Part shown: positions 24,371 through 34,936 of the stretch, one piece after another
Layout: each line of letters opens with the position of its first letter
Numbering within the stretch: position 1 is the stretch's first letter
Sequence record: MH560358
Length of the DNA: 64,000 nt
Reading direction: 5' to 3' (one strand)
DNA from: Escherichia virus KFS-EC
Notes under the pieces: model-generated
Databases searched by the model: none
What the model saw: only the letters and a program-made list of their open reading frames with translations
What the model was told of the DNA's origin: nothing
Program-made: the position numbers and the translations under genes

Positions 24371-24834
24371 GCTAAATCATTGCAATATTTTAGTGCCTTA
24401 GTTTGAAATTCTGCGCTGTTAAGTTCTTCATAACGGTCATAATCACCGTTTAATGCTGCCTTTCTTGCTTCTTGCTCTATCTGCATGTCAGACATGATAA
24501 TACAGCGATCCCGCGCTTTCATCTTCTCAAGTTGTATAGACTCTTCTTTCTGCTTGCGCAATTCTTCTTGACGCTTCTTTTCTTCTTGTGCTTCTTTGAT
24601 TGCATCCTTGAACATCTGCGTTTGTGGTGCTAAACCAACTTTAACGCGATCCACGTCTCGACGTTCCATTTTAGAAATAAAGCACGATTCGATCTGATCA
24701 TCACTTGCATATGCTGCTTTACATTCACGAAGCAAGAAAACCGGATCTGATTTAGCATTCATCATAGCTTCCATGTTGGCACAACCAGTAAGCATGAATG
24801 CAGCCGCAAGACCAATCAGTTTAATCATTTTCAT
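24364..24834 (-). CDS. Putative lipoprotein (156 aa)
   Basis: N-terminal signal peptide with lipobox LTGC; charged coiled-coil-like remainder; ATGA overlap with the upstream ADP-ribosyltransferase gene. Confidence 0.55.
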   Translation of the reverse strand: MKMIKLIGLAAAFMLTGCANMEAMMNAKSDPVFLLRECKAAYASDDQIESCFISKMERRDVDRVKVGLAPQTQMFKDAIKEAQEEKKRQEELRKQKEESIQLEKMKARDRCIIMSDMQIEQEARKAALNGDYDRYEELNSAEFQTKALKYCNDLAK

Positions 24835-25655
24835 TTAGTCACCTCACCGAAAATTGTAAATTGTCTACGATTCTCATCGCCGAAAGATTCTACTACGTCG
24901 TTTACCTTGACGCAAGTCCCGCGCGGTAAAATTACTTCACATTCGCAAGGGTTCCATGCAATTGACCCAACAACAAAACCTTTATGATCTTTTACGTCAA
25001 TTACCCATGATACATTACAAGAATGTTGCATCTTTCCGGTCATTGATTCATATCGATTCTCACAATAAAGGCTAGTGCTGTTTGATAGCCATCCTCCAAA
25101 GATGATTGGTGTCATGCTGGTTGACACAAAGTTTTTAAAGGTAAATTCCTTATCTTCAATAATACGCTCTATTGTCTGAATGTCAAGATGTTGACCGCGA
25201 TAAAGAGTACCGTTTAACTTTTCGGTTTTATCCATGACACAATCCATCAAATCGACAATCTCTGATATCTCATCGGTCATGTCTTCTTCCCCTAAGAGAG
25301 CACCATTTACCCATTCGTATTGCTCAGACACATAATCACAGATTGCATTATATTCTGCTGGTGTTATGTTGTTATGTTTGTAATGTTTGAATACATTATC
25401 TCCAAAGTCTTCGGAGTGTACTTCATACATCACATTAATGATTTTCTTGACAAATCCATAATCTTGTGTCTCACGCTCAAGGAAGCGGATAACCTTCACA
25501 TAATCATCAAAGTTAATCTGATCGCTGATCATCTCAGTGATCATGTAACCATTAATCCCCTCAATGTCATATGTTTCGATGTAATTATCCATACGTTCCA
25601 TCATTGATTCGCGTGATTCTTCTGAAAGACGAAAATCCTGTAATTTCTTGAACAT
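24831..25655 (-). CDS. ADP-ribosyltransferase, Alt/Mod-like paralogue (274 aa)
   Basis: C-terminal half carries the R-S-E triad context (LYRG...FVSTS...CECEVILPRG) shared with the Alt catalytic domain. Confidence 0.65.
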   Translation of the reverse strand: MFKKLQDFRLSEESRESMMERMDNYIETYDIEGINGYMITEMISDQINFDDYVKVIRFLERETQDYGFVKKIINVMYEVHSEDFGDNVFKHYKHNNITPAEYNAICDYVSEQYEWVNGALLGEEDMTDEISEIVDLMDCVMDKTEKLNGTLYRGQHLDIQTIERIIEDKEFTFKNFVSTSMTPIIFGGWLSNSTSLYCENRYESMTGKMQHSCNVSWVIDVKDHKGFVVGSIAWNPCECEVILPRGTCVKVNDVVESFGDENRRQFTIFGEVTK

Positions 25656-25733: not shown

Positions 25734-27785
25734 TTACATTTTAAATTTATCTGGCATTGCGTCTACAGATACCAGATCAGCGATAAGCTGACGTAGAGTT
25801 GCCTTATCTGCTTTCTTACGTTCGGTTTTAGCTTCGCTAATGAAGCTGGAGAAAGACAGGTCAGAAGCAGGTTTAACAACACCTTCACGGATGAATGCAT
25901 CACCGTCCGCGATCATCTCGCCAGATTCTTGTAATGCTGCCAGTTCATTTTTGTTCATAATATGTGCCTCAATGTAATAAGTTTCTTGTGAATCCGTCGA
26001 TGCCGTAGCACGAGTTACCGTATCAAAGGATAACACAACACCGCGAGGAAGTAAAATCTCGCATTCTTTGTAAGCAAATGCTTTGTTACCTACTGGCAAG
26101 ACAGGGAGGTTTTCCGCGCCAGCAATGGAGAAAGCAACATTAGCGCCACCTTCACCACGAGAGCCAGCCATAGAATCAACACCAGCAACGGCACTAGCCA
26201 CGTTTGCATTCCAGCCGCCAAAAATGTTAGGTGCAAGGGAAGTGCTCACATAGTTTTTAAAGTAAAACGCTTTTTGCTTACGTGCAGTTTCCCACATTTG
26301 CGACCGGAAGTCCATACCACGATACAGAATAGTACCCGGATCAAGTTTAACGCCATAGTTGGAGAAGGCATTATCCAGTGCATCGCACATCTTGACCAAT
26401 TCTTCTGGATCTGAGATGCCTTCAAACTCTTCCAGCTTACGGTCGGTTAGGAAGTTGTTCATATTGATGTATGCTGCATCGGCATATTCGCTCAACACAA
26501 AACCTTCCGCGCCTGGCAGATCAAGATCAATATCTGCCATCATTTCACCCATGTTGCTAGCAATTGCTTCAAACATACCGGAAGCAACATTACGTAGGGC
26601 ATCGGTTTTAATCTGGGTGATGTGACTACGCAGCATTTCAGCTTTTACATCTGCTGGCATAGACTGGTCTACTCGAACCATTGCTAGGGCGGTGATCTTG
26701 TTTTCGAATACTTCCTCGCTCATGATTTCTTTTAAGCGTTTGATTGATGCTGCGATAACTTCCGCAGACAACGGATCATATTGATCCTGAACTTTTACCA
26801 GTTCGCTTACTGCGTATTTTGCATCGGCTTCGCTTTCAAAAATAGTACGCATGAAACCATAGCGAGTGATAATATCACTTGTCCAGTCATTCAGAGAACG
26901 GGCGGTTGAACGTTCTAAGGCTTGACGATCAATCAGAGTATTAAACTGTTTCTTAGGTTCGGCTTCGGTGATATCTTCTTCCGGTTTAAGATTAATTTTT
27001 TCTGGATGATTCACATAGTCGCTGTTATAGGTCGCTTGAGTTTTCAGCATTTCTTCTTTAGTCAAACGAGATTTAGCCGCTACGCGTTGTTCCGCTTCCG
27101 CGTTTCGTTCTTCTTCTGACACAAGACTAGCCGCATACGCCTCATCTTTAGTCAGTGATTCACCAGTAGCCTTAGATACCCAGCGATCACCTAAATCACT
27201 TTCTACTTTAGTGAACAAGGATTCATCAAGTTTAATCCCTTTAATCTTATCAATCGCCATACCGCGACGCTTGACAACAACTAAAGCGATCTTTTTGCTG
27301 GTCATTACTTCCTGCTGGAATACTTCAAACTTCGGTGTACGACGCACCAAACGCTCTATAACGCGCTTAACCAGTTCGGTCTTACCTTTCATGCGGGATA
27401 CGTTAAAACGGAACATAACAGCGTCTAATTGCGCTTTACGGGCTGTTTCCATAACCACATCAAAAGCACTTGCCATGACTGCAATCGGGTTATCGCCTAG
27501 ACCATTTTTAAGCTGTACAATACGACCGCTTTTGTTCATTTCGCACAGTACAACATGTGCGGTCTTGTCACCCATACGAATGATTTTAGGTGTTTTGTTG
27601 GTGAAGTTACAAAGACGGACAATCACATCTTTATCGCGTGTCTGTACTGCAAAAAGCTGTTTAGGATTCTGCTTAGGCTTTAAGCACTGTACAGGAGCAA
27701 TACTGCCAAAGTTTTCTTCCTCTTCCGTCAACAGCCATTTCTCGAAAGATTCAATCATTAGATCGTCGATTTCTAAGTTAAACAT
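25734..27785 (-). CDS. alt: ADP-ribosyltransferase Alt
   Basis: 683 aa (T4 Alt is 682); C-terminal domain with ILYRG...YVSTS...ECEILLPRG. Confidence 0.9.
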   Translation of the reverse strand: MFNLEIDDLMIESFEKWLLTEEEENFGSIAPVQCLKPKQNPKQLFAVQTRDKDVIVRLCNFTNKTPKIIRMGDKTAHVVLCEMNKSGRIVQLKNGLGDNPIAVMASAFDVVMETARKAQLDAVMFRFNVSRMKGKTELVKRVIERLVRRTPKFEVFQQEVMTSKKIALVVVKRRGMAIDKIKGIKLDESLFTKVESDLGDRWVSKATGESLTKDEAYAASLVSEEERNAEAEQRVAAKSRLTKEEMLKTQATYNSDYVNHPEKINLKPEEDITEAEPKKQFNTLIDRQALERSTARSLNDWTSDIITRYGFMRTIFESEADAKYAVSELVKVQDQYDPLSAEVIAASIKRLKEIMSEEVFENKITALAMVRVDQSMPADVKAEMLRSHITQIKTDALRNVASGMFEAIASNMGEMMADIDLDLPGAEGFVLSEYADAAYINMNNFLTDRKLEEFEGISDPEELVKMCDALDNAFSNYGVKLDPGTILYRGMDFRSQMWETARKQKAFYFKNYVSTSLAPNIFGGWNANVASAVAGVDSMAGSRGEGGANVAFSIAGAENLPVLPVGNKAFAYKECEILLPRGVVLSFDTVTRATASTDSQETYYIEAHIMNKNELAALQESGEMIADGDAFIREGVVKPASDLSFSSFISEAKTERKKADKATLRQLIADLVSVDAMPDKFKM

Positions 27786-28102: not shown

Positions 28103-28131
28103 ATTATAGGGGATCACCGATCCCCTGTCAA
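28103..28131 (-). promoter_or_regulatory. PeSL-type early promoter (TTGACA, GGGGATCggtGATCCCC, TATAAT)
   Basis: Minus strand: -35 TTGACA, 17-nt spacer that is a perfect GC palindrome, -10 TATAAT, then conserved leader ending in a ribosome binding site. Confidence 0.6.
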
Positions 28132-28138
28132 CAACTTT

Positions 28139-28657
28139 TTAGTTATTTTTTAATTGTTCATCTTGCAATAATGCAATCACATGCTGGCGATGTTCTTCCG
28201 ATTGAGGTACACCGAAAAAGTTTGTTTTGTAGAAATACTCTAATCGGTCTTCTCGTGTGCTCTCTTCCATCATGATCGCGGGTAGTCCGAGATTTCGGAA
28301 ACGTCGCTTTTCTGCTGGCGTAAAATCACTGTAATACAACATAGAATCATCATTACAAGCAATGCTAAACTCATCTTTCATAAAGGAGAATATTGCGTTT
28401 AAACGCTGTTTACCGTCCACGATTTCGATCTCATAGCGAGAGCCATCATCAATCTTAGCCATTGCGATAGCACCAACCGGAAAATCATTAATCAGGTTTT
28501 CGATAAACATACGTTTGTTTTCGGTGTCCCATACCAAAGGACGCTGATAATCTGGGTTCATGTTGATATAGCCATCTTCTAACCATGCTTCGTAAACAGA
28601 GATGACAAAGTTTTTAGTATTGGTATAGTAACGGCGTTTAGGCGTTAAACGGTTCAT
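28139..28657 (-). CDS. ParB-like / DUF262-like protein (172 aa)
   Basis: DYQRPLVW and DGKQRL motifs typical of the DUF262 ParB/Srx-fold domain; ATG placed 1 nt after the upstream stop. Confidence 0.55.
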   Translation of the reverse strand: MNRLTPKRRYYTNTKNFVISVYEAWLEDGYINMNPDYQRPLVWDTENKRMFIENLINDFPVGAIAMAKIDDGSRYEIEIVDGKQRLNAIFSFMKDEFSIACNDDSMLYYSDFTPAEKRRFRNLGLPAIMMEESTREDRLEYFYKTNFFGVPQSEEHRQHVIALLQDEQLKNN

Positions 28658-28658
28658 G

Positions 28659-28991
28659 TTATAGTCTCCTGAATGGATCATCACGTAAATCAATATCTTT
28701 TAAGAACTCATCCCATGAATGGCGGATATTGTTCTTAATTCTCCAGATAAGCGCAGGGATTGAACGCTCTCCCATCTGGAAGTATGGATCATATGATCCG
28801 TATGACCAATATGCTACTACAATTCCACAATCAGCGCAATAGTATTCTATTTCACTTGCTGGCGACCAAAGTCCATCAATATGATCGGTGATCTTGCTTT
28901 CGATGTTATGGCTATGACAATCAGGGCAACGGATGCAATGACCTTGTTTATCGTAATTTGACGTTAGAGAATACTTAAACAATCTCATCAT
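28659..28991 (-). CDS. Zinc-ribbon protein (110 aa)
   Basis: CIRCPDCHSH ... YYCADCG, two CxxC pairs; ATGA overlap with the upstream methyltransferase-like gene. Confidence 0.5.
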   Translation of the reverse strand: MMRLFKYSLTSNYDKQGHCIRCPDCHSHNIESKITDHIDGLWSPASEIEYYCADCGIVVAYWSYGSYDPYFQMGERSIPALIWRIKNNIRHSWDEFLKDIDLRDDPFRRL

Positions 28992-29704
28992 GGATCCTTA
29001 TTTGCTTCAAATACTGCCTTTGCGAATCCTCGCGGGGTAAGTGACCTGATAGTCTTTGTTTTCGTTCCTTTCCCGCCTAGCTTAGAATGCTGTTTACTGT
29101 ACCCTTTATTAATCTGCACCGGTTTCTTTTCTGGCATTATAAAGCCTTGTCCGGTCCATAAGCAAGTCTTTTTTGGGTACATATCACGGGCGGCAATATA
29201 CTCAGGAAACGTAGGATGCTTATCATCTTCCGGCAAATAACCGCCATATTCCCACGGATGGAACATGTAATCAGGCTTACGCCACATGCTAGAGATAACG
29301 CTTACAGGATTCTCTATCATGTAGGGAACTCCTAGCCATTCACCCAAATAAGCGGTTATTTTAGCTGCCCGTACATCATGAACTTGAATCAATGGTCCTT
29401 GTTCTAGTTTCTTTCGTTCAAAGTGCGCAGCGCCACTAACAGCTAAATTGGTGCACGGTGGGAATGCAAAGATAATATCCGGTTTCCCCCATTCAAGGTC
29501 CATTGCTCTTTCCAGCCAGTTCAAATCAACCCAGGTGTTTACATAGGTAATGTTTTGATGTTCAAATCGGGTATTATATTTTTTGTATGTACCGTGGTCG
29601 CCATCGTCAGCATTAAAGCAGATCACCTTATGACCCGCTTTAGCCCATTCTAACCCCATTATCCCCGATCCGTCAAAGTTGCAGAATATTAATTTTTGTT
29701 TCAT
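28988..29704 (-). CDS. Cytosine-C5 methyltransferase-fold protein, minimal (238 aa)
   Basis: Motif I FCNFDGSGIMG, motif IV DIIFAFPPCTNLAVSG (PC catalytic dipeptide), motif VI YMIENPVSV (ENV-like), C-terminal TPRGFAKAV (motif IX/X-like); no room for a conventional target-recognition domain. Confidence 0.6.
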   Translation of the reverse strand: MKQKLIFCNFDGSGIMGLEWAKAGHKVICFNADDGDHGTYKKYNTRFEHQNITYVNTWVDLNWLERAMDLEWGKPDIIFAFPPCTNLAVSGAAHFERKKLEQGPLIQVHDVRAAKITAYLGEWLGVPYMIENPVSVISSMWRKPDYMFHPWEYGGYLPEDDKHPTFPEYIAARDMYPKKTCLWTGQGFIMPEKKPVQINKGYSKQHSKLGGKGTKTKTIRSLTPRGFAKAVFEANKDP

Positions 29705-29946
29705 ATACTCCCCTTTAATCCAACACAGATTTTAGAAGGTTCTTTGCCGTGCCACATTAAGTAAAGTCCGTTAATGCGGCCTTGTTTTGTATATGATTCT
29801 TTTCTGATCTTCTTATAGTGTCGTGTTTCCTCAGCCGATTGTTTAGAATACCAATCATAAAGGAAGATGAACAAAGGCCACCCATTAGCGGCCTTAATGC
29901 AGTTATTCAAAAATTCCTTATTGCGTTTAATTAATTTTCTTTTCAC
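29701..29946 (-). CDS. Hypothetical protein (81 aa)
   Basis: Start (possibly GTG) overlaps the upstream stop; basic N-terminus and hydrophobic WPLFIFLYDWY segment. Confidence 0.4.
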   Translation of the reverse strand: MKRKLIKRNKEFLNNCIKAANGWPLFIFLYDWYSKQSAEETRHYKKIRKESYTKQGRINGLYLMWHGKEPSKICVGLKGSI

Positions 29947-30194
29947 GCTGCCCCCATTGGTTTGATAGTAACAGAATCTAAAAGACCTTTGTTAGCCAGT
30001 TCGCGGCAAGTTTTCAGATCCGCAACTTCCCAGCCAGCCGCAATCAGGTTATCGATTAGGCTGTTAGCAACTTCTTCGCTCATGAAAGAGCACTGTTTGC
30101 CGATGGTGTAGCGTACACGCTGTAATTTCAGTTTACGGAAGCCTTTAACGTTCAGGTCTTTAGCGATTTTCTTTGCGGTTTCGATGTTAGCCAT
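29943..30194 (-). CDS. Hypothetical protein (83 aa), first gene of coupled operon
   Basis: ATG with ribosome binding site directly downstream of a PeSL promoter. Confidence 0.5.
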   Translation of the reverse strand: MANIETAKKIAKDLNVKGFRKLKLQRVRYTIGKQCSFMSEEVANSLIDNLIAAGWEVADLKTCRELANKGLLDSVTIKPMGAA

Positions 30195-30234: not shown

Positions 30235-30264
30235 ATTGTAGGGGGAGTTATCCTCCCCTGTCAA
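30235..30264 (-). promoter_or_regulatory. PeSL-type early promoter (TTGACA, GGGGAGGataaCTCCCCC, TACAAT)
   Basis: -35/-10 hexamers bracketing an 18-nt GC palindrome; leader almost identical to that at 31139-31173. Confidence 0.55.
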
Positions 30265-30278
30265 CACTTTTTATAAAA

Positions 30279-30446
30279 TTATTTGTTAATTTCTGGTGCG
30301 TTGCTAGGATAGTAACCTTCTTTAACTCCGAGATATTTCGCAACCATCCCTACAATCTTCTGTGCTACTACAATGTCAAATTTCAGATAATCTTCGCCGT
30401 GGGTTTCAATGATATATGCTTCACATGCTGCTTTAGTCTCGAACAT
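30279..30446 (-). CDS. Small protein (55 aa), copy 1 of duplicated gene
   Basis: ATG ORF MFETKAACEAYIIETHGEDYLKFDIVVAQKIVGMVAKYLGVKEGYYPSNAPEINK, about 90 percent identical to the 33560..33727 product; under 60 aa so absent from the track. Confidence 0.5.
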   Translation of the reverse strand: MFETKAACEAYIIETHGEDYLKFDIVVAQKIVGMVAKYLGVKEGYYPSNAPEINK

Positions 30447-31269: not shown

Positions 31270-31578
31270 TCATTTAGACAAATAATCATTCTGTGCAATC
31301 CGGTCGGCGTATGCTGGTGTTATGTCAATCGCCAACACTTTAACGCGTGCTTTCTTGCGACCTGGGTTTTCTCGTAACCAGTGCTCATGACCGTGAACAT
31401 TTTTATACTGAGATGCTTCTTCGAAGGTACGGATCGGACCTGGGTAATCAGCGTAAAGGATCTCTAGGTCATCGGTGATGTAAAAATATACATCATAATT
31501 ACTGTTCTCTAGTTTAAGCAGAGAGTTGCGAAATTGTGGTAAATTCTCGCGGGTAAATTCAACTACAAGATTTTTCAT
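31270..31578 (-). CDS. HxHW-VLAVDV family small protein (102 aa), paralogue 1
   Basis: Signature YFYITDD ... HGHEHWL ... VLAIDI shared with five neighbouring ORFs. Confidence 0.55.
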   Translation of the reverse strand: MKNLVVEFTRENLPQFRNSLLKLENSNYDVYFYITDDLEILYADYPGPIRTFEEASQYKNVHGHEHWLRENPGRKKARVKVLAIDITPAYADRIAQNDYLSK

Positions 31579-31997: not shown

Positions 31998-32276
31998 TTA
32001 TAAAATAATTTTTTGATATTTTTCTATGATGTTTGTGTAGGTCACGTCAACCGCTAGCACCGTTGCTTCGAATCCACCGTTTAACCAATGGCTATGATCA
32101 TGATCGTGAAAGAAACCTAGACCAGTACGAAGACCTTCTTTATATTCGGCGCGTACATTTAGATCATCATCGATAAACAGATAAAACCATGAATTTTTAC
32201 TAGGATTGATGATACAACCTTTCAGATTAGGGAGAATATCACGACTAAGAATAAACTTATCACCTACTTTGAACAT
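31998..32276 (-). CDS. HxHW-VLAVDV family small protein (92 aa), paralogue 2
   Basis: Start moved to ATG (MFKVGDKF) with GAGGA ribosome binding site; motif FHDHDHSHWL ... VLAVDV. Confidence 0.55.
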   Translation of the reverse strand: MFKVGDKFILSRDILPNLKGCIINPSKNSWFYLFIDDDLNVRAEYKEGLRTGLGFFHDHDHSHWLNGGFEATVLAVDVTYTNIIEKYQKIIL

Positions 32277-32280
32277 AATA

Positions 32281-32601
32281 TTAGTCCTCACTTATAAGGT
32301 CAAACCAATTGTTTTTCGCATAATGCTTAATGCGTGCTTGATCTGCTTCCGCTGGTGATAGATTCCATGCAACCACTACAACTTCTGACGCATCGTCATC
32401 CGTTTCTGATACCCAATGATTGTGATTCATACAGTTATTTGCTATCGAGTGAGCAAATGATTTCATCACTGGAGACGTATAATCATAGTAACGGATTTTC
32501 AGATTTTCATCAACATACAAGTAGATCGTATAAGGTTTATATTCAGTAACCAGTAACAGACAGTTACGCAATTCTGGGAAAATCTTTTTAGTTAATTTCA
32601 T
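32281..32601 (-). CDS. HxHW family small protein (106 aa), paralogue 3
   Basis: Start moved to ATG (MKLTKKIF) one nt after the upstream stop; motif NHNHWV ... VVVVAWN. Confidence 0.5.
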   Translation of the reverse strand: MKLTKKIFPELRNCLLLVTEYKPYTIYLYVDENLKIRYYDYTSPVMKSFAHSIANNCMNHNHWVSETDDDASEVVVVAWNLSPAEADQARIKHYAKNNWFDLISED

Positions 32602-32602
32602 T

Positions 32603-32821
32603 TTATAATCCTCGGTCTCGGCTATAGTACACGGTACGCCATACAATTTCATGTTTCGTGTCGCTCCAGCACACGATCTCATTTACTCTTAAATCTTTGT
32701 TATCAACAAAAGATGAACATTGTGACGCTTCTTTCATCATTTTATCTGCTGTTTTCTCATCAAATACAGCACAGATTTCTTTATACACTCGATAATCTTT
32801 GAATTGACTCTGAATACCCAT
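32603..32821 (-). CDS. Hypothetical protein (about 72 aa), member of a two-gene paralogue pair
   Basis: SQFKDYRVYKEI...KMMKEASQCSSF parallels SKFKEYKAYQQI...KMMEDASKCPSF in the next ORF; start uncertain (41-nt overlap with upstream gene). Confidence 0.45.
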   Translation of the reverse strand: MGIQSQFKDYRVYKEICAVFDEKTADKMMKEASQCSSFVDNKDLRVNEIVCWSDTKHEIVWRTVYYSRDRGL

Positions 32822-33044
32822 AATTAACACCATTCCAACCAATTGTTTTTGAGAAAACGTTTATCCACTGTTGAGTGTAGCATGTTTCTTTCCATGATAC
32901 AATACGAGTGGAATAATGGTTTTTGTTTCCAGAAAAGGACGGGCATTTTGATGCATCTTCCATCATCTTTTCGGCGAACTCTGGTGCGTATACTCGCAGG
33001 ATCTGTTGATATGCTTTGTATTCTTTAAATTTGCTCATAATCAT
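32781..33044 (-). CDS. Hypothetical protein (87 aa), member of a two-gene paralogue pair
   Basis: ATG ORF; paralogue of 32603..32821. Confidence 0.45.
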   Translation of the reverse strand: MIMSKFKEYKAYQQILRVYAPEFAEKMMEDASKCPSFSGNKNHYSTRIVSWKETCYTQQWINVFSKTIGWNGVNYGYSESIQRLSSV

Positions 33045-33303
33045 TCACTACCTTATCAGCTTCTTTTGTTGTTTTTACATCAACTGCGATAACTCGTAAA
33101 GGTTCGTCATGGTTCCACCAGTGGTCATGAATATCAGCTTGTGATTTATCACCAAAGGAATCACGAATATCATTTTTACATTTATAGCTAATGTGACCTT
33201 CATAGTCAACATAAAGGTAATTATCGAAAATCGGCGTTTTTAAGATCATACCGAAAAATCTTTCTTTGTGTGTCTTATCCAGCGTTACAGTAATTCGCAT
33301 CAT
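33025..33303 (-). CDS. HxHW-VLAVDV family small protein (92 aa), paralogue 4
   Basis: Motif YLYVDYEG ... IHDHWW ... VIAVDV. Confidence 0.55.
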   Translation of the reverse strand: MMRITVTLDKTHKERFFGMILKTPIFDNYLYVDYEGHISYKCKNDIRDSFGDKSQADIHDHWWNHDEPLRVIAVDVKTTKEADKVVNDYEQI

Positions 33304-33559: not shown

Positions 33560-33727
33560 TTATTTGTTAATTTCCGGTGCGTTGCTCGGATAGTAACCTT
33601 CTTTAACACCTAGATATTTTGCAACCATTCCGGTGATCTTCTGTGCTACTACGATATCGAATTTCAGGTAGTCTTCACCGTGGTTTGCTACAATGTATGC
33701 TTCGCATTCTGCTTTAGTCTGGAACAT
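33560..33727 (-). CDS. Small protein (55 aa), copy 2 of duplicated gene
   Basis: Start moved to ATG (MFQTKAECEAY); near-identical to the 30279..30446 product; preceded by PeSL promoter. Confidence 0.5.
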   Translation of the reverse strand: MFQTKAECEAYIVANHGEDYLKFDIVVAQKITGMVAKYLGVKEGYYPSNAPEINK

Positions 33728-33761
33728 TTTTGATTCTCCTATATCTCGTTGGTATGTGTGC

Positions 33762-33790
33762 ATTATAGGGGATCGGTGATCCCCTGTCAA
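33762..33790 (-). promoter_or_regulatory. PeSL-type early promoter (TTGACA, GGGGATCaccGATCCCC, TATAAT)
   Basis: Same architecture and almost the same palindrome as the promoter at 28103-28131. Confidence 0.6.
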
Positions 33791-33795
33791 CAACT

Positions 33796-34089
33796 TTATA
33801 ATGCTTTATATGCGTATTTCATAAATTTGTCTGCCACTTCATTGGCATGTTCAGATTCTACGCCTGATTCGAGAACAATAGCTAGGTCGGTTTCGTCATT
33901 CCCGCCGTACCAATGATTTGATGTTCGATTTTTTTCAATTGGAAATTGGTCACTTTTATCTGTGCGACAAAATACATCTAAATGCTCGTCGATGTAAAAG
34001 ATCCAATCTTCATAAAGAATAACGGTATTAGCAAGATTTTTATTGCCTTCAACGAAAGGTTCGGCTACAAACAAATTAGTATGTTCCAT
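33796..34089 (-). CDS. HxHW-related small protein (97 aa), paralogue 5
   Basis: Start moved to ATG (MEHTNLF) with GAGGAAA ribosome binding site; motif IFYIDEH ... SNHWY ... LAIVLE. Confidence 0.45.
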   Translation of the reverse strand: MEHTNLFVAEPFVEGNKNLANTVILYEDWIFYIDEHLDVFCRTDKSDQFPIEKNRTSNHWYGGNDETDLAIVLESGVESEHANEVADKFMKYAYKAL

Positions 34090-34105
34090 AGTATTTTCCT
34101 CAAAA

Positions 34106-34297
34106 TTATACAGCTTCGTAAACTTCCCAATGTCCAACACCAGCACGCTTAACGAAAAGGTTTTCTTTGATGTTATTCATAAACGTCTGGATGGATTTAA
34201 TGCGGTTTGAAGGTTTCCATTCTTCGTTGGCATTGCGTCGATACATCATAACATTACCAGTTCGCTTATATTCAGCAACCATTTTAAGACCACACAT
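34106..34297 (-). CDS. Hypothetical protein (63 aa)
   Basis: ATG with GAGGA ribosome binding site. Confidence 0.45.
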   Translation of the reverse strand: MCGLKMVAEYKRTGNVMMYRRNANEEWKPSNRIKSIQTFMNNIKENLFVKRAGVGHWEVYEAV

Positions 34298-34354: not shown

Positions 34355-34675
34355 TCACACAAAATGGCGTGTCAATGCTTCTTTTGCGGTTCCGCTAAGA
34401 CTTTCGATCTCGCCTGGCATAACATCAACCGCCAGAACTTCTACAACATCCTCGGACCCTAACCAGTGAGTATGACCTTTGTAGAACTTGATAACCAGAC
34501 TACCTTCCTCGTCCCATTTAACGCTATCGCTAGCCCACCACACATCACCGTCGATAAAGTTGATGTAAAGCACACTACGCCACATTGAATTAATTACTTT
34601 CAATACTGCGCCTTTCATCTCTTCCACGGTATGGTCTTCCATTTTGAAGACCTCACCTACCTGAACTTTTGCCAT
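34355..34675 (-). CDS. HxHW-VLAVDV family small protein (106 aa), paralogue 6
   Basis: Motif YINFIDGD ... GHTHWL ... VLAVDV. Confidence 0.55.
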   Translation of the reverse strand: MAKVQVGEVFKMEDHTVEEMKGAVLKVINSMWRSVLYINFIDGDVWWASDSVKWDEEGSLVIKFYKGHTHWLGSEDVVEVLAVDVMPGEIESLSGTAKEALTRHFV

Positions 34676-34906: not shown

Positions 34907-34936
34907 AGTATAGGGGAGTTTAACCTCCCCTGTCAA
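34907..34936 (-). promoter_or_regulatory. PeSL-type early promoter (TTGACA, GGGGAGGttaaaCTCCCC, TATACT)
   Basis: Palindromic 18-nt spacer between -35 and -10. Confidence 0.55.

Follow-up and report, generated by a model that had tools for sequence, protein, structure and literature searches.

The 238-residue protein encoded at 28988..29704 on the minus strand of a 64,000-nucleotide stretch of Escherichia virus KFS-EC DNA (MH560358; the window) is very probably a stand-alone, SAM-dependent DNA C5-methyltransferase (MTase) of a compact Dcm-like family, which methylates DNA at a short and sparse motif. The gene itself, its family membership, the fold, the conserved catalytic residues, the absence of conserved partners and the promoter are established in the present analysis. 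Formation of 5-methylcytosine (5mC) on DNA in vivo has been shown for one relative only, the enzyme of phage K42, and we infer that MTase has the same chemistry, as we infer its target sequence and its role. MTase is unremarkable within its family of compact phage Dcm-like proteins, which is very common and already characterised, and its gene, which many Krischvirus records already label as a DNA or C5-cytosine methyltransferase, is not new.

Results

The gene and its family

The first-pass annotation had placed an unusually compact C5-methyltransferase at this locus. The ORF listing confirms a 238-aa frame at exactly 28988..29704; the strand, which was absent from that annotation, is minus, and the plus-strand translation of the same interval contains many stops. 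All features of the window described below likewise lie on the minus strand. The motifs that had been quoted were all found, namely FCNFDGSGIMG (aa 7-17), FAFPPCTNLAVSG (aa 79-91), IENPVSV (aa 130-136) and TPRG (aa 223-226). The ORF, an orthologue of RB49p189, is ATG-initiated and preceded by a Shine-Dalgarno sequence (AAGGGGAG); its start overlaps the stop of the upstream 81-aa gene and its stop overlaps the start of the downstream 110-aa gene, in both cases as ATGA. RefSeq notes an alternative start at Met16, but this would leave motif I outside the protein, so that the ATG at 29704 is the correct start.

The ORF is a real gene and not a chance frame, because a word-indexed search (E<=1e-3) returns homologues in 7,309 clusters at 90 % identity, and because PHROG 757 ('DNA methyltransferase', profile length 247) matches it over its full length (aa 1-236, E=2e-89). 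Over the surrounding 2.5 kb, the DNA shares 97-99 % identity with Krischvirus genomes, among them those of RB49, Sf20, kvi, TB34 and SAP. In these and related records, the same ORF is labelled 'DNA methyltransferase' (RB49p189, NP_891760, in RefSeq), 'Dcm' (phage kvi) or 'C-5 cytosine DNA methylase' (TB34 and the Makalu phages).

The compactness is genuine and holds across the family, whose median length is 233 aa. The best 120 of the 7,309 clusters measure 219-259 aa, while an exhaustive search of representatives at 50 % identity gives 1,150 matches, mostly of 200-260 aa. Given these family-wide lengths and the full-length PHROG 757 match, we conclude that the small size is a conserved property and not the result of truncation. 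At 238 aa, MTase has the architecture of the family, a single domain of ~220-260 aa with a short variable loop between the equivalents of motifs VIII and IX. Among the longer family members no recurrent extra domain, such as a fused target-recognition domain (TRD) or reader, was found; there is one HNH_2 fusion and one weak winged-helix-like match. By tblastn, the gene is present in 1,519 of 50,697 phage records, and its hosts include Drexlerviridae, Webervirus, Dhillonvirus, Jerseyvirus, Vequintavirinae, Krischvirus and even one Arthrobacter phage.

Several other arrangements were seen elsewhere in the family. The HNH_2 fusion is a metagenomic protein of 348 aa (P0262) with a C-terminal HNH_2 endonuclease domain (E=6e-8), which may represent either a restriction-modification enzyme in a single chain or the insertion of a homing nuclease. 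At ~24 Dhillonvirus- or Jerseyvirus-like loci, a gene for an SNF2-family helicase directly follows the compact MTase gene and overlaps it (e.g. L041, 4650-6104). Two metagenomic phage proteins in BFVD, A0A6J5SE15 (1397 aa) and A0A6J5NPY6 (1126 aa), have a compact MTase-like domain fused to a helicase, a layout that recalls eukaryotic DNMT5.

Conserved motifs and fold

Conservation was counted in an alignment of 68 diverse family members, in which C84, G91, E131, P133, P150, K178, W183, P191 and R220 are invariant. The SAM-binding loop of motif I (aa 7-14, FCNFDGSG; 29663..29686) has the FxGxG form as F10-D-G12-S-G14, the family consensus being L-F-D-x-[ST]-G; D11 is kept in 55 and G14 in 57 of the 68 members, and G12 is not conserved. 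Asn31 occupies the position at which 55 of the 68 have an acidic ribose-binding residue, mostly Asp. The catalytic loop of motif IV (aa 79-91; 29432..29470) holds the nucleophile Cys84 (nt 29453-29455) within a PPC84 that lies in register with PC81 of M.HhaI in the hhalign alignment, with both C84 and G91 present in 68/68. In motif VI (aa 129-135, MIENPVS; 29300..29320), Glu131 is the ENV-type glutamate; the ENV of M.HhaI aligns in register with E131-N132-P133, in which N132 is found in 66/68 members and the other two residues are invariant.

Downstream of motif VI, the 68-member alignment contains no motif VIII of the QxRxR type. In its place is D174-x-Y176-x-K178-K179-T180, within a motif-VIII-equivalent strand (aa 174-183, DMYPKKTCLW; 29156..29185) in which D174, Y176 and T180 are at least 93 % conserved and K178 and W183 invariant. 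The C-terminal segment (aa 209-231; 29012..29080) consists of a basic anchor, LGGK-x-x-K-TK (LGGKS-x-[RK]-TK in the 68-member alignment), a motif IX/X-equivalent (IRSLTPRGFAKAV) and the C-terminal helix. R220 is invariant here, S221, T223, P224, G226 and A230 are at least 88 % conserved among the 68 members, and helices are predicted at aa 214-220 and 225-235.

The fold of a C5-MTase catalytic domain, as the first-pass annotation had proposed, was recovered by structure comparison, in which DNMT3B/A, a prophage MTase, HhaI and MpeI all outscore Dnmt2. The links from sequence comparison fall below significance. Pfam PF00145 reaches 13.2 bits against a cut-off of 22, thus below its gathering threshold, and over aa 10-93 only (motifs I-IV); none of the 68 diverse members (0/68) matches it significantly. 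Neither phmmer nor hmmsearch finds a sequence match in the PDB, and no NCBIfam model matches. Alignment of the family profile with M.HhaI, using a sequence checked to be identical to 10mh_A, gives an hhalign E of 0.17, though PC falls on PC and ENP on ENV. It is thus the structure comparison, together with the literature, and not the sequence links, that settles the assignment to the C5-MTases.

Comparison with the known enzymes places MTase beside both the canonical and the DNMT3-type proteins. M.HhaI, M.HaeIII and E. coli Dcm (PF00145) likewise have a Rossmann-type core, along which motifs I, IV (PC) and VI (ENV/ENP) share their order and register with those of MTase, and their chemistry is presumably shared with MTase; unlike these type II enzymes, however, the phage protein is ~90-230 aa shorter, lacks QxRxR and is an orphan with no cognate nuclease. 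The catalytic domains of DNMT3A and DNMT3B (PDB 6u8p, 4u7t, 6f57) share only 13-17 % identity with it. MTase is a 238-aa single domain with no PWWP, ADD or other Pfam domain, has Lys-Lys for the motif-VIII arginines and an even shorter recognition segment, and its resemblance to DNMT3 is confined to the catalytic fold and the small TRD.

A short loop in place of the target-recognition domain

No separate TRD, that is, a block of ~80-100 or more residues between motifs VIII and IX, is present in MTase. From K178 to R220 there are 41 aa, ~17 of them variable, and M.HhaI has ~105 aa between motifs VIII and IX as against ~27 aa in the phage MTase. It had been claimed that the protein leaves no room for a TRD. 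This stands in so far as no canonical TRD fits, and does not stand in so far as the conservation alignment reveals a hypervariable mini-TRD at the topologically equivalent position. This loop (aa 192-208, EKKPVQINKGYSKQHSK; 29081..29131) is the sole high-entropy, indel-rich segment after motif VI, and together with the basic anchor it is topologically like the small TRD loop of DNMT3A/B.

Across 200 homologues, the segment corresponding to P191-I219 ranges from 24 to 59 aa with a median of 27, and the loops fall into a GYSxQ class (102, the most frequent, including the MTase described here), an NPGW class (24) and others (71). We suggest, tentatively and as a possibility that is on balance doubtful, that the aa 192-208 loop (~17-30 aa) is the sole specificity determinant of a minimal C5-MTase, and that the target of the GYSxQ variant differs from the CCWGG assumed for the NPGW-type K42 enzyme.

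The characterised relative of phage K42

The relative with direct functional data comes from work on retron Ec86 (Eco1), which appeared as a preprint (10.1101/2023.08.16.553469) and subsequently as Wang et al., Cell Rep 2024;43:114857. K42 is a Drexlerviridae phage related to KarlJaspers/Bas06, and its Ec86 escapers all disrupt a 711-bp dcm gene; dcm is present in 34 of 35 Ec86-sensitive phages. When expressed alone from a plasmid, K42 Dcm activates the retron. LC-MS showed that 5mC on msDNA, identified by its match to a 5mC standard, rises with the wild-type enzyme and not with a quadruple mutant. An AlphaFold model of K42 Dcm was superposed on DNMT3A (6F57), from which C82, E128, K175 and K176 were assigned to the active site, with K175/K176 as the substrate-binding residues. 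The CCWGG specificity given to K42 Dcm was transferred from E. coli Dcm, its sole support being a CCTGG mutation in the msDNA stem (all 10.1101/2023.08.16.553469).

The only cytosine MTase gene of KarlJaspers (MZ501090) is bas06_0055 (711 bp, 'Dcm-like C5 cytosine methyltransferase'), whose product aligns with MTase over its full length at 55 % identity (BLASTP, E=1e-92), the mini-TRD loop being the main point of divergence. MTase is also 53 % identical to tiwna_64, and residues 82, 128, 175 and 176 of the near-identical tiwna protein are C, E, K and K. The K42 residues C82, E128, K175 and K176 align to C84, E131, K178 and K179 of MTase, and the two proteins, as judged from these alignments, belong to one family. 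K42/Bas06 Dcm resembles MTase in length (236 versus 238 aa), in its equivalent catalytic residues, in a predicted DNMT3A-like fold and in being encoded by a stand-alone gene. It differs in its host phage (Drexlerviridae versus Straboviridae/Krischvirus), in its genetic location (a replication module versus an early cassette of the promoter-early stem-loop, or PeSL, type) and in its loop, which is 'NPGW' rather than the 'GYSxQ' of the Krischvirus MTase. Because this loop variant is not that of the tested enzyme, the assumed CCWGG motif is not transferable to the Krischvirus MTase.

An early gene cassette

The locus is part of an early, hyperplastic region, with the alt ADP-ribosyltransferase gene on one side and a long series of small ORFs on the other. 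Upstream is a PeSL-type early sigma-70 promoter (30235..30264), TTGACA-18-TACAAT, which matches 11/12 of the consensus, has an internal GGGG...CCCC stem-loop and drives a five-gene cassette. The next PeSL promoter/terminator, TTGACA-17-TATAAT (12/12; 28103..28131), sits just after the stop of the last gene and marks the 3' boundary of the cassette. The PeSL pattern was found twice, as against none in shuffled sequences. Since these elements bracket the cassette, MTase is predicted to be the third of five co-transcribed early genes, in the order p83 (29943..30194, PHROG 14908), p81 (29701..29946, PHROG 7065), MTase, a 110-aa zinc-ribbon protein (28659..28991, PHROG 2993) and a protein consisting of a DUF262 (GmrSD_N) domain only (28139..28693; Pfam PF03235, E=6e-20). 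PeSL cassettes are known from RB49 and phi1, in which the elements serve as early promoters and terminators and mediate the shuffling of accessory genes (PMC2839356; the class is also described in PMC4122927).

The stand-alone DUF262 protein (~172-184 aa) lacks the DUF1524 nuclease half. Homologues are present in ~300 phage records, among them RB43, KP27 and Margaery; in every case the gene is small, stands alone and occurs irrespective of MTase. The protein could conceivably be a decoy for, or modulator of, GmrSD-type defence. By size and position, the ~110-aa genes that precede DUF262 in RB43 and KP27 seemed to be zinc-ribbon homologues, but they proved to be unrelated.

Other features of this part of the window were also noted. 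A further PeSL element at 34907-34936 is a consensus sigma-70 promoter with a GGGG...CCCC hairpin between -35 and -10, and two near-duplicate ORFs (30279-30446 and 33560-33793) each follow a PeSL. Six small tandem paralogous ORFs of 92-133 aa (31270-31578, 31998-32291, 32281-32682, 33025-33303, 33796-34146 and 34355-34675) share the C-terminal signature 'H-x-H-W ... (V/L)A(V/I)D(V/I)'. On the other side of the cassette are two adjacent ADP-ribosyltransferase genes, 24831-25655 (274 aa) and 25734-27785 (683 aa). The latter encodes a full-length Alt homologue, while the former matches only the catalytic C-terminal part; the Pfam ADPrib_exo_Tox E-values of the pair are 2e-9 and 4e-16.

Cytosine modification in Krischvirus DNA

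Published data on Krischvirus DNA bear on how much methylation MTase could produce. RB49 DNA is cut by HpaII and NheI, and HPLC/MS of TB34 virion DNA detected no modified nucleoside, though TB34 encodes an intact copy of MTase. Virion DNA can therefore carry sparse methylation at most; with CCWGG as the target, it would affect only ~0.16 % of cytosines.

In the 64,000-nt window, GGCC occurs 24 times (73 expected) and CCWGG 21 times (75 expected), while TCCGGA, GAATTC, AAGCTT, CCGCGG, AGCGCT and CAGCTG are each absent against expectations of 10-23. GATC is not avoided (364 versus 351 expected). This pattern is consistent with a phage whose cytosines are unmodified and which depends on site avoidance together with adenine methylation. 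Site frequencies were also considered as a guide to the target of MTase, but CCWGG and most palindromes are avoided, so that no protected site is singled out.

A 2026 paper reported hmC-derived modifications in the Krischvirus SAP and none in TB34, which is 99.96 % identical to it. Across the 3.3 kb around MTase, the differences between SAP and TB34 amount to a 79-bp tandem duplication of a PeSL and, close to the far end, two single-base indels. The duplication (L084, the SAP locus, 819-897, versus position 818 of L083, the TB34 locus) gives rise to the small ORF SAP_052. The MTase gene does not differ between the two phages and is thereby ruled out as the cause of the SAP modification. The modification profile of SAP matches the one seen in seven Tequatrovirus phages from the same study, and for this reason a sample mix-up seems worth excluding.

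Discussion

Taken with the residues assigned in K42 Dcm, the conserved motifs suggest how MTase may work. SAM would be bound at motif I (FDGSG), with Asn31 at the usual Asp position. The target cytosine would be flipped into the pocket, where Cys84 (motif IV, PPC) would attack C6 and Glu131 (motif VI, ENP) would protonate N3, while Lys178/Lys179, instead of the canonical motif-VIII arginines, would hold the flipped base and the backbone. Transfer of the methyl group to C5 would then be followed by release of the enzyme through beta-elimination. The short hypervariable loop (aa 192-208), followed by the basic anchor LGGK..TK.IR, would take the place of the ~100-aa TRD. With early transcription from the PeSL sigma-70 promoter, MTase would methylate the phage DNA as it replicates, along with any other DNA that the cell contains.

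The first-pass annotation had offered two explanations for so small a protein: either its specificity comes from partners in the operon, or its substrate is not DNA. Neither is supported. A bare catalytic core that needs the zinc-ribbon protein, the DUF262 protein, p81 or p83 for DNA targeting would be in keeping with the single promoter common to all five genes, with the ATGA overlaps that couple MTase to p81 and the zinc-ribbon protein, and with the ability of DUF262/ParB-like and zinc-ribbon domains to bind nucleic acids. Yet of 81 related loci, retrieved with an alignment of closer homologues, 78 have no homologues of these four neighbours beside MTase, the three exceptions being the Krischvirus loci, and the DUF262 homologues of RB43 and KP27 (E ~1e-36) have neither MTase nor the zinc-ribbon protein nearby. 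PeSL-flanked cassettes of the RB49 type are, moreover, shuffled sets of unrelated genes (PMC2839356), and K42 Dcm, closely related to bas06_0055 (55 % identical to MTase), works when expressed by itself. Dependence on partners is thus very unlikely. A substrate other than DNA, e.g. tRNA in the manner of Dnmt2 or free dCMP/dCTP, is highly improbable. The CFT motif is a Dnmt2-type signature; MTase contains no such motif between the equivalents of motifs VIII and IX, neither the CFT...Y motif in a TRD nor a best structural match to Dnmt2 was found, and the DNA MTases named above rank ahead of Dnmt2 structurally. K42 Dcm, furthermore, raises 5-methyl-deoxycytidine in msDNA. The recurrent neighbours of MTase in other phages are replication-module genes (an SNF2 helicase directly downstream, DNA pol A, VRR-NUC and DUF3987), and modification of the nucleotide pool would give fully methylated TB34 DNA, which was not detected.

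Two further readings concern the activity itself. It is extremely unlikely that MTase transfers a group other than methyl (e.g. carboxymethyl from Cx-SAM) or starts a hypermodification that explains the modified cytosines of SAP: its gene is the same in unmodified TB34, the SAP profile is that of the co-studied Tequatrovirus phages, the K42 product matched the 5mC standard, and no TET-like or glycosyltransferase genes are reported in Krischvirus. That MTase is a catalytically dead or regulatory DNA-binding remnant could be argued from Asn31 in place of the usual Asp, from the non-canonical motif VIII and from the lack of detected modification in TB34 DNA, but this is scarcely credible. Every residue mutated in the inactive K42 control is conserved in MTase, the invariance of C84, E131 and K178 in 68 diverse members indicates purifying selection on catalysis, and N31 is common to 13 of the 68, among them close relatives in many phage genera.

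An active, stand-alone DNA C5-MTase remains the best explanation. Its role is most likely that of an early orphan enzyme marking replicating DNA at a short motif, which would protect it against particular restriction systems. This benefit we only infer, because the window strongly avoids CCWGG and many palindromes and because the BASEL study found no simple correlation between such MTase genes and resistance to restriction. By analogy with the K42 homologue, such activity can also carry a cost, as it may be sensed by retron Ec86 (Eco1).

For the family as a whole, the finding changes little, since the published study already reports the DNMT3A-like fold, the catalytic residues, 5mC formation and the activation of retron Ec86. 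The identity of the gene in SAP and TB34 means that it cannot account for the puzzling report of hypermodified SAP DNA. No Pfam or NCBIfam model covers the family, although ~3 % of phage genomes have a copy, often labelled 'hypothetical protein'; a dedicated model would fix this. As the family demonstrates, ~27 residues can suffice as the recognition element of a C5-MTase, a point of interest to enzyme engineers. Should the loop prove to be the sole specificity determinant, a DNMT3-like dimer might read a target motif that is very short or relaxed. The family would in that case offer a natural set of swappable mini-TRDs, all built on a scaffold of 230 aa, and would be the nearest structural counterpart of the DNMT3 catalytic domain among prokaryotes.
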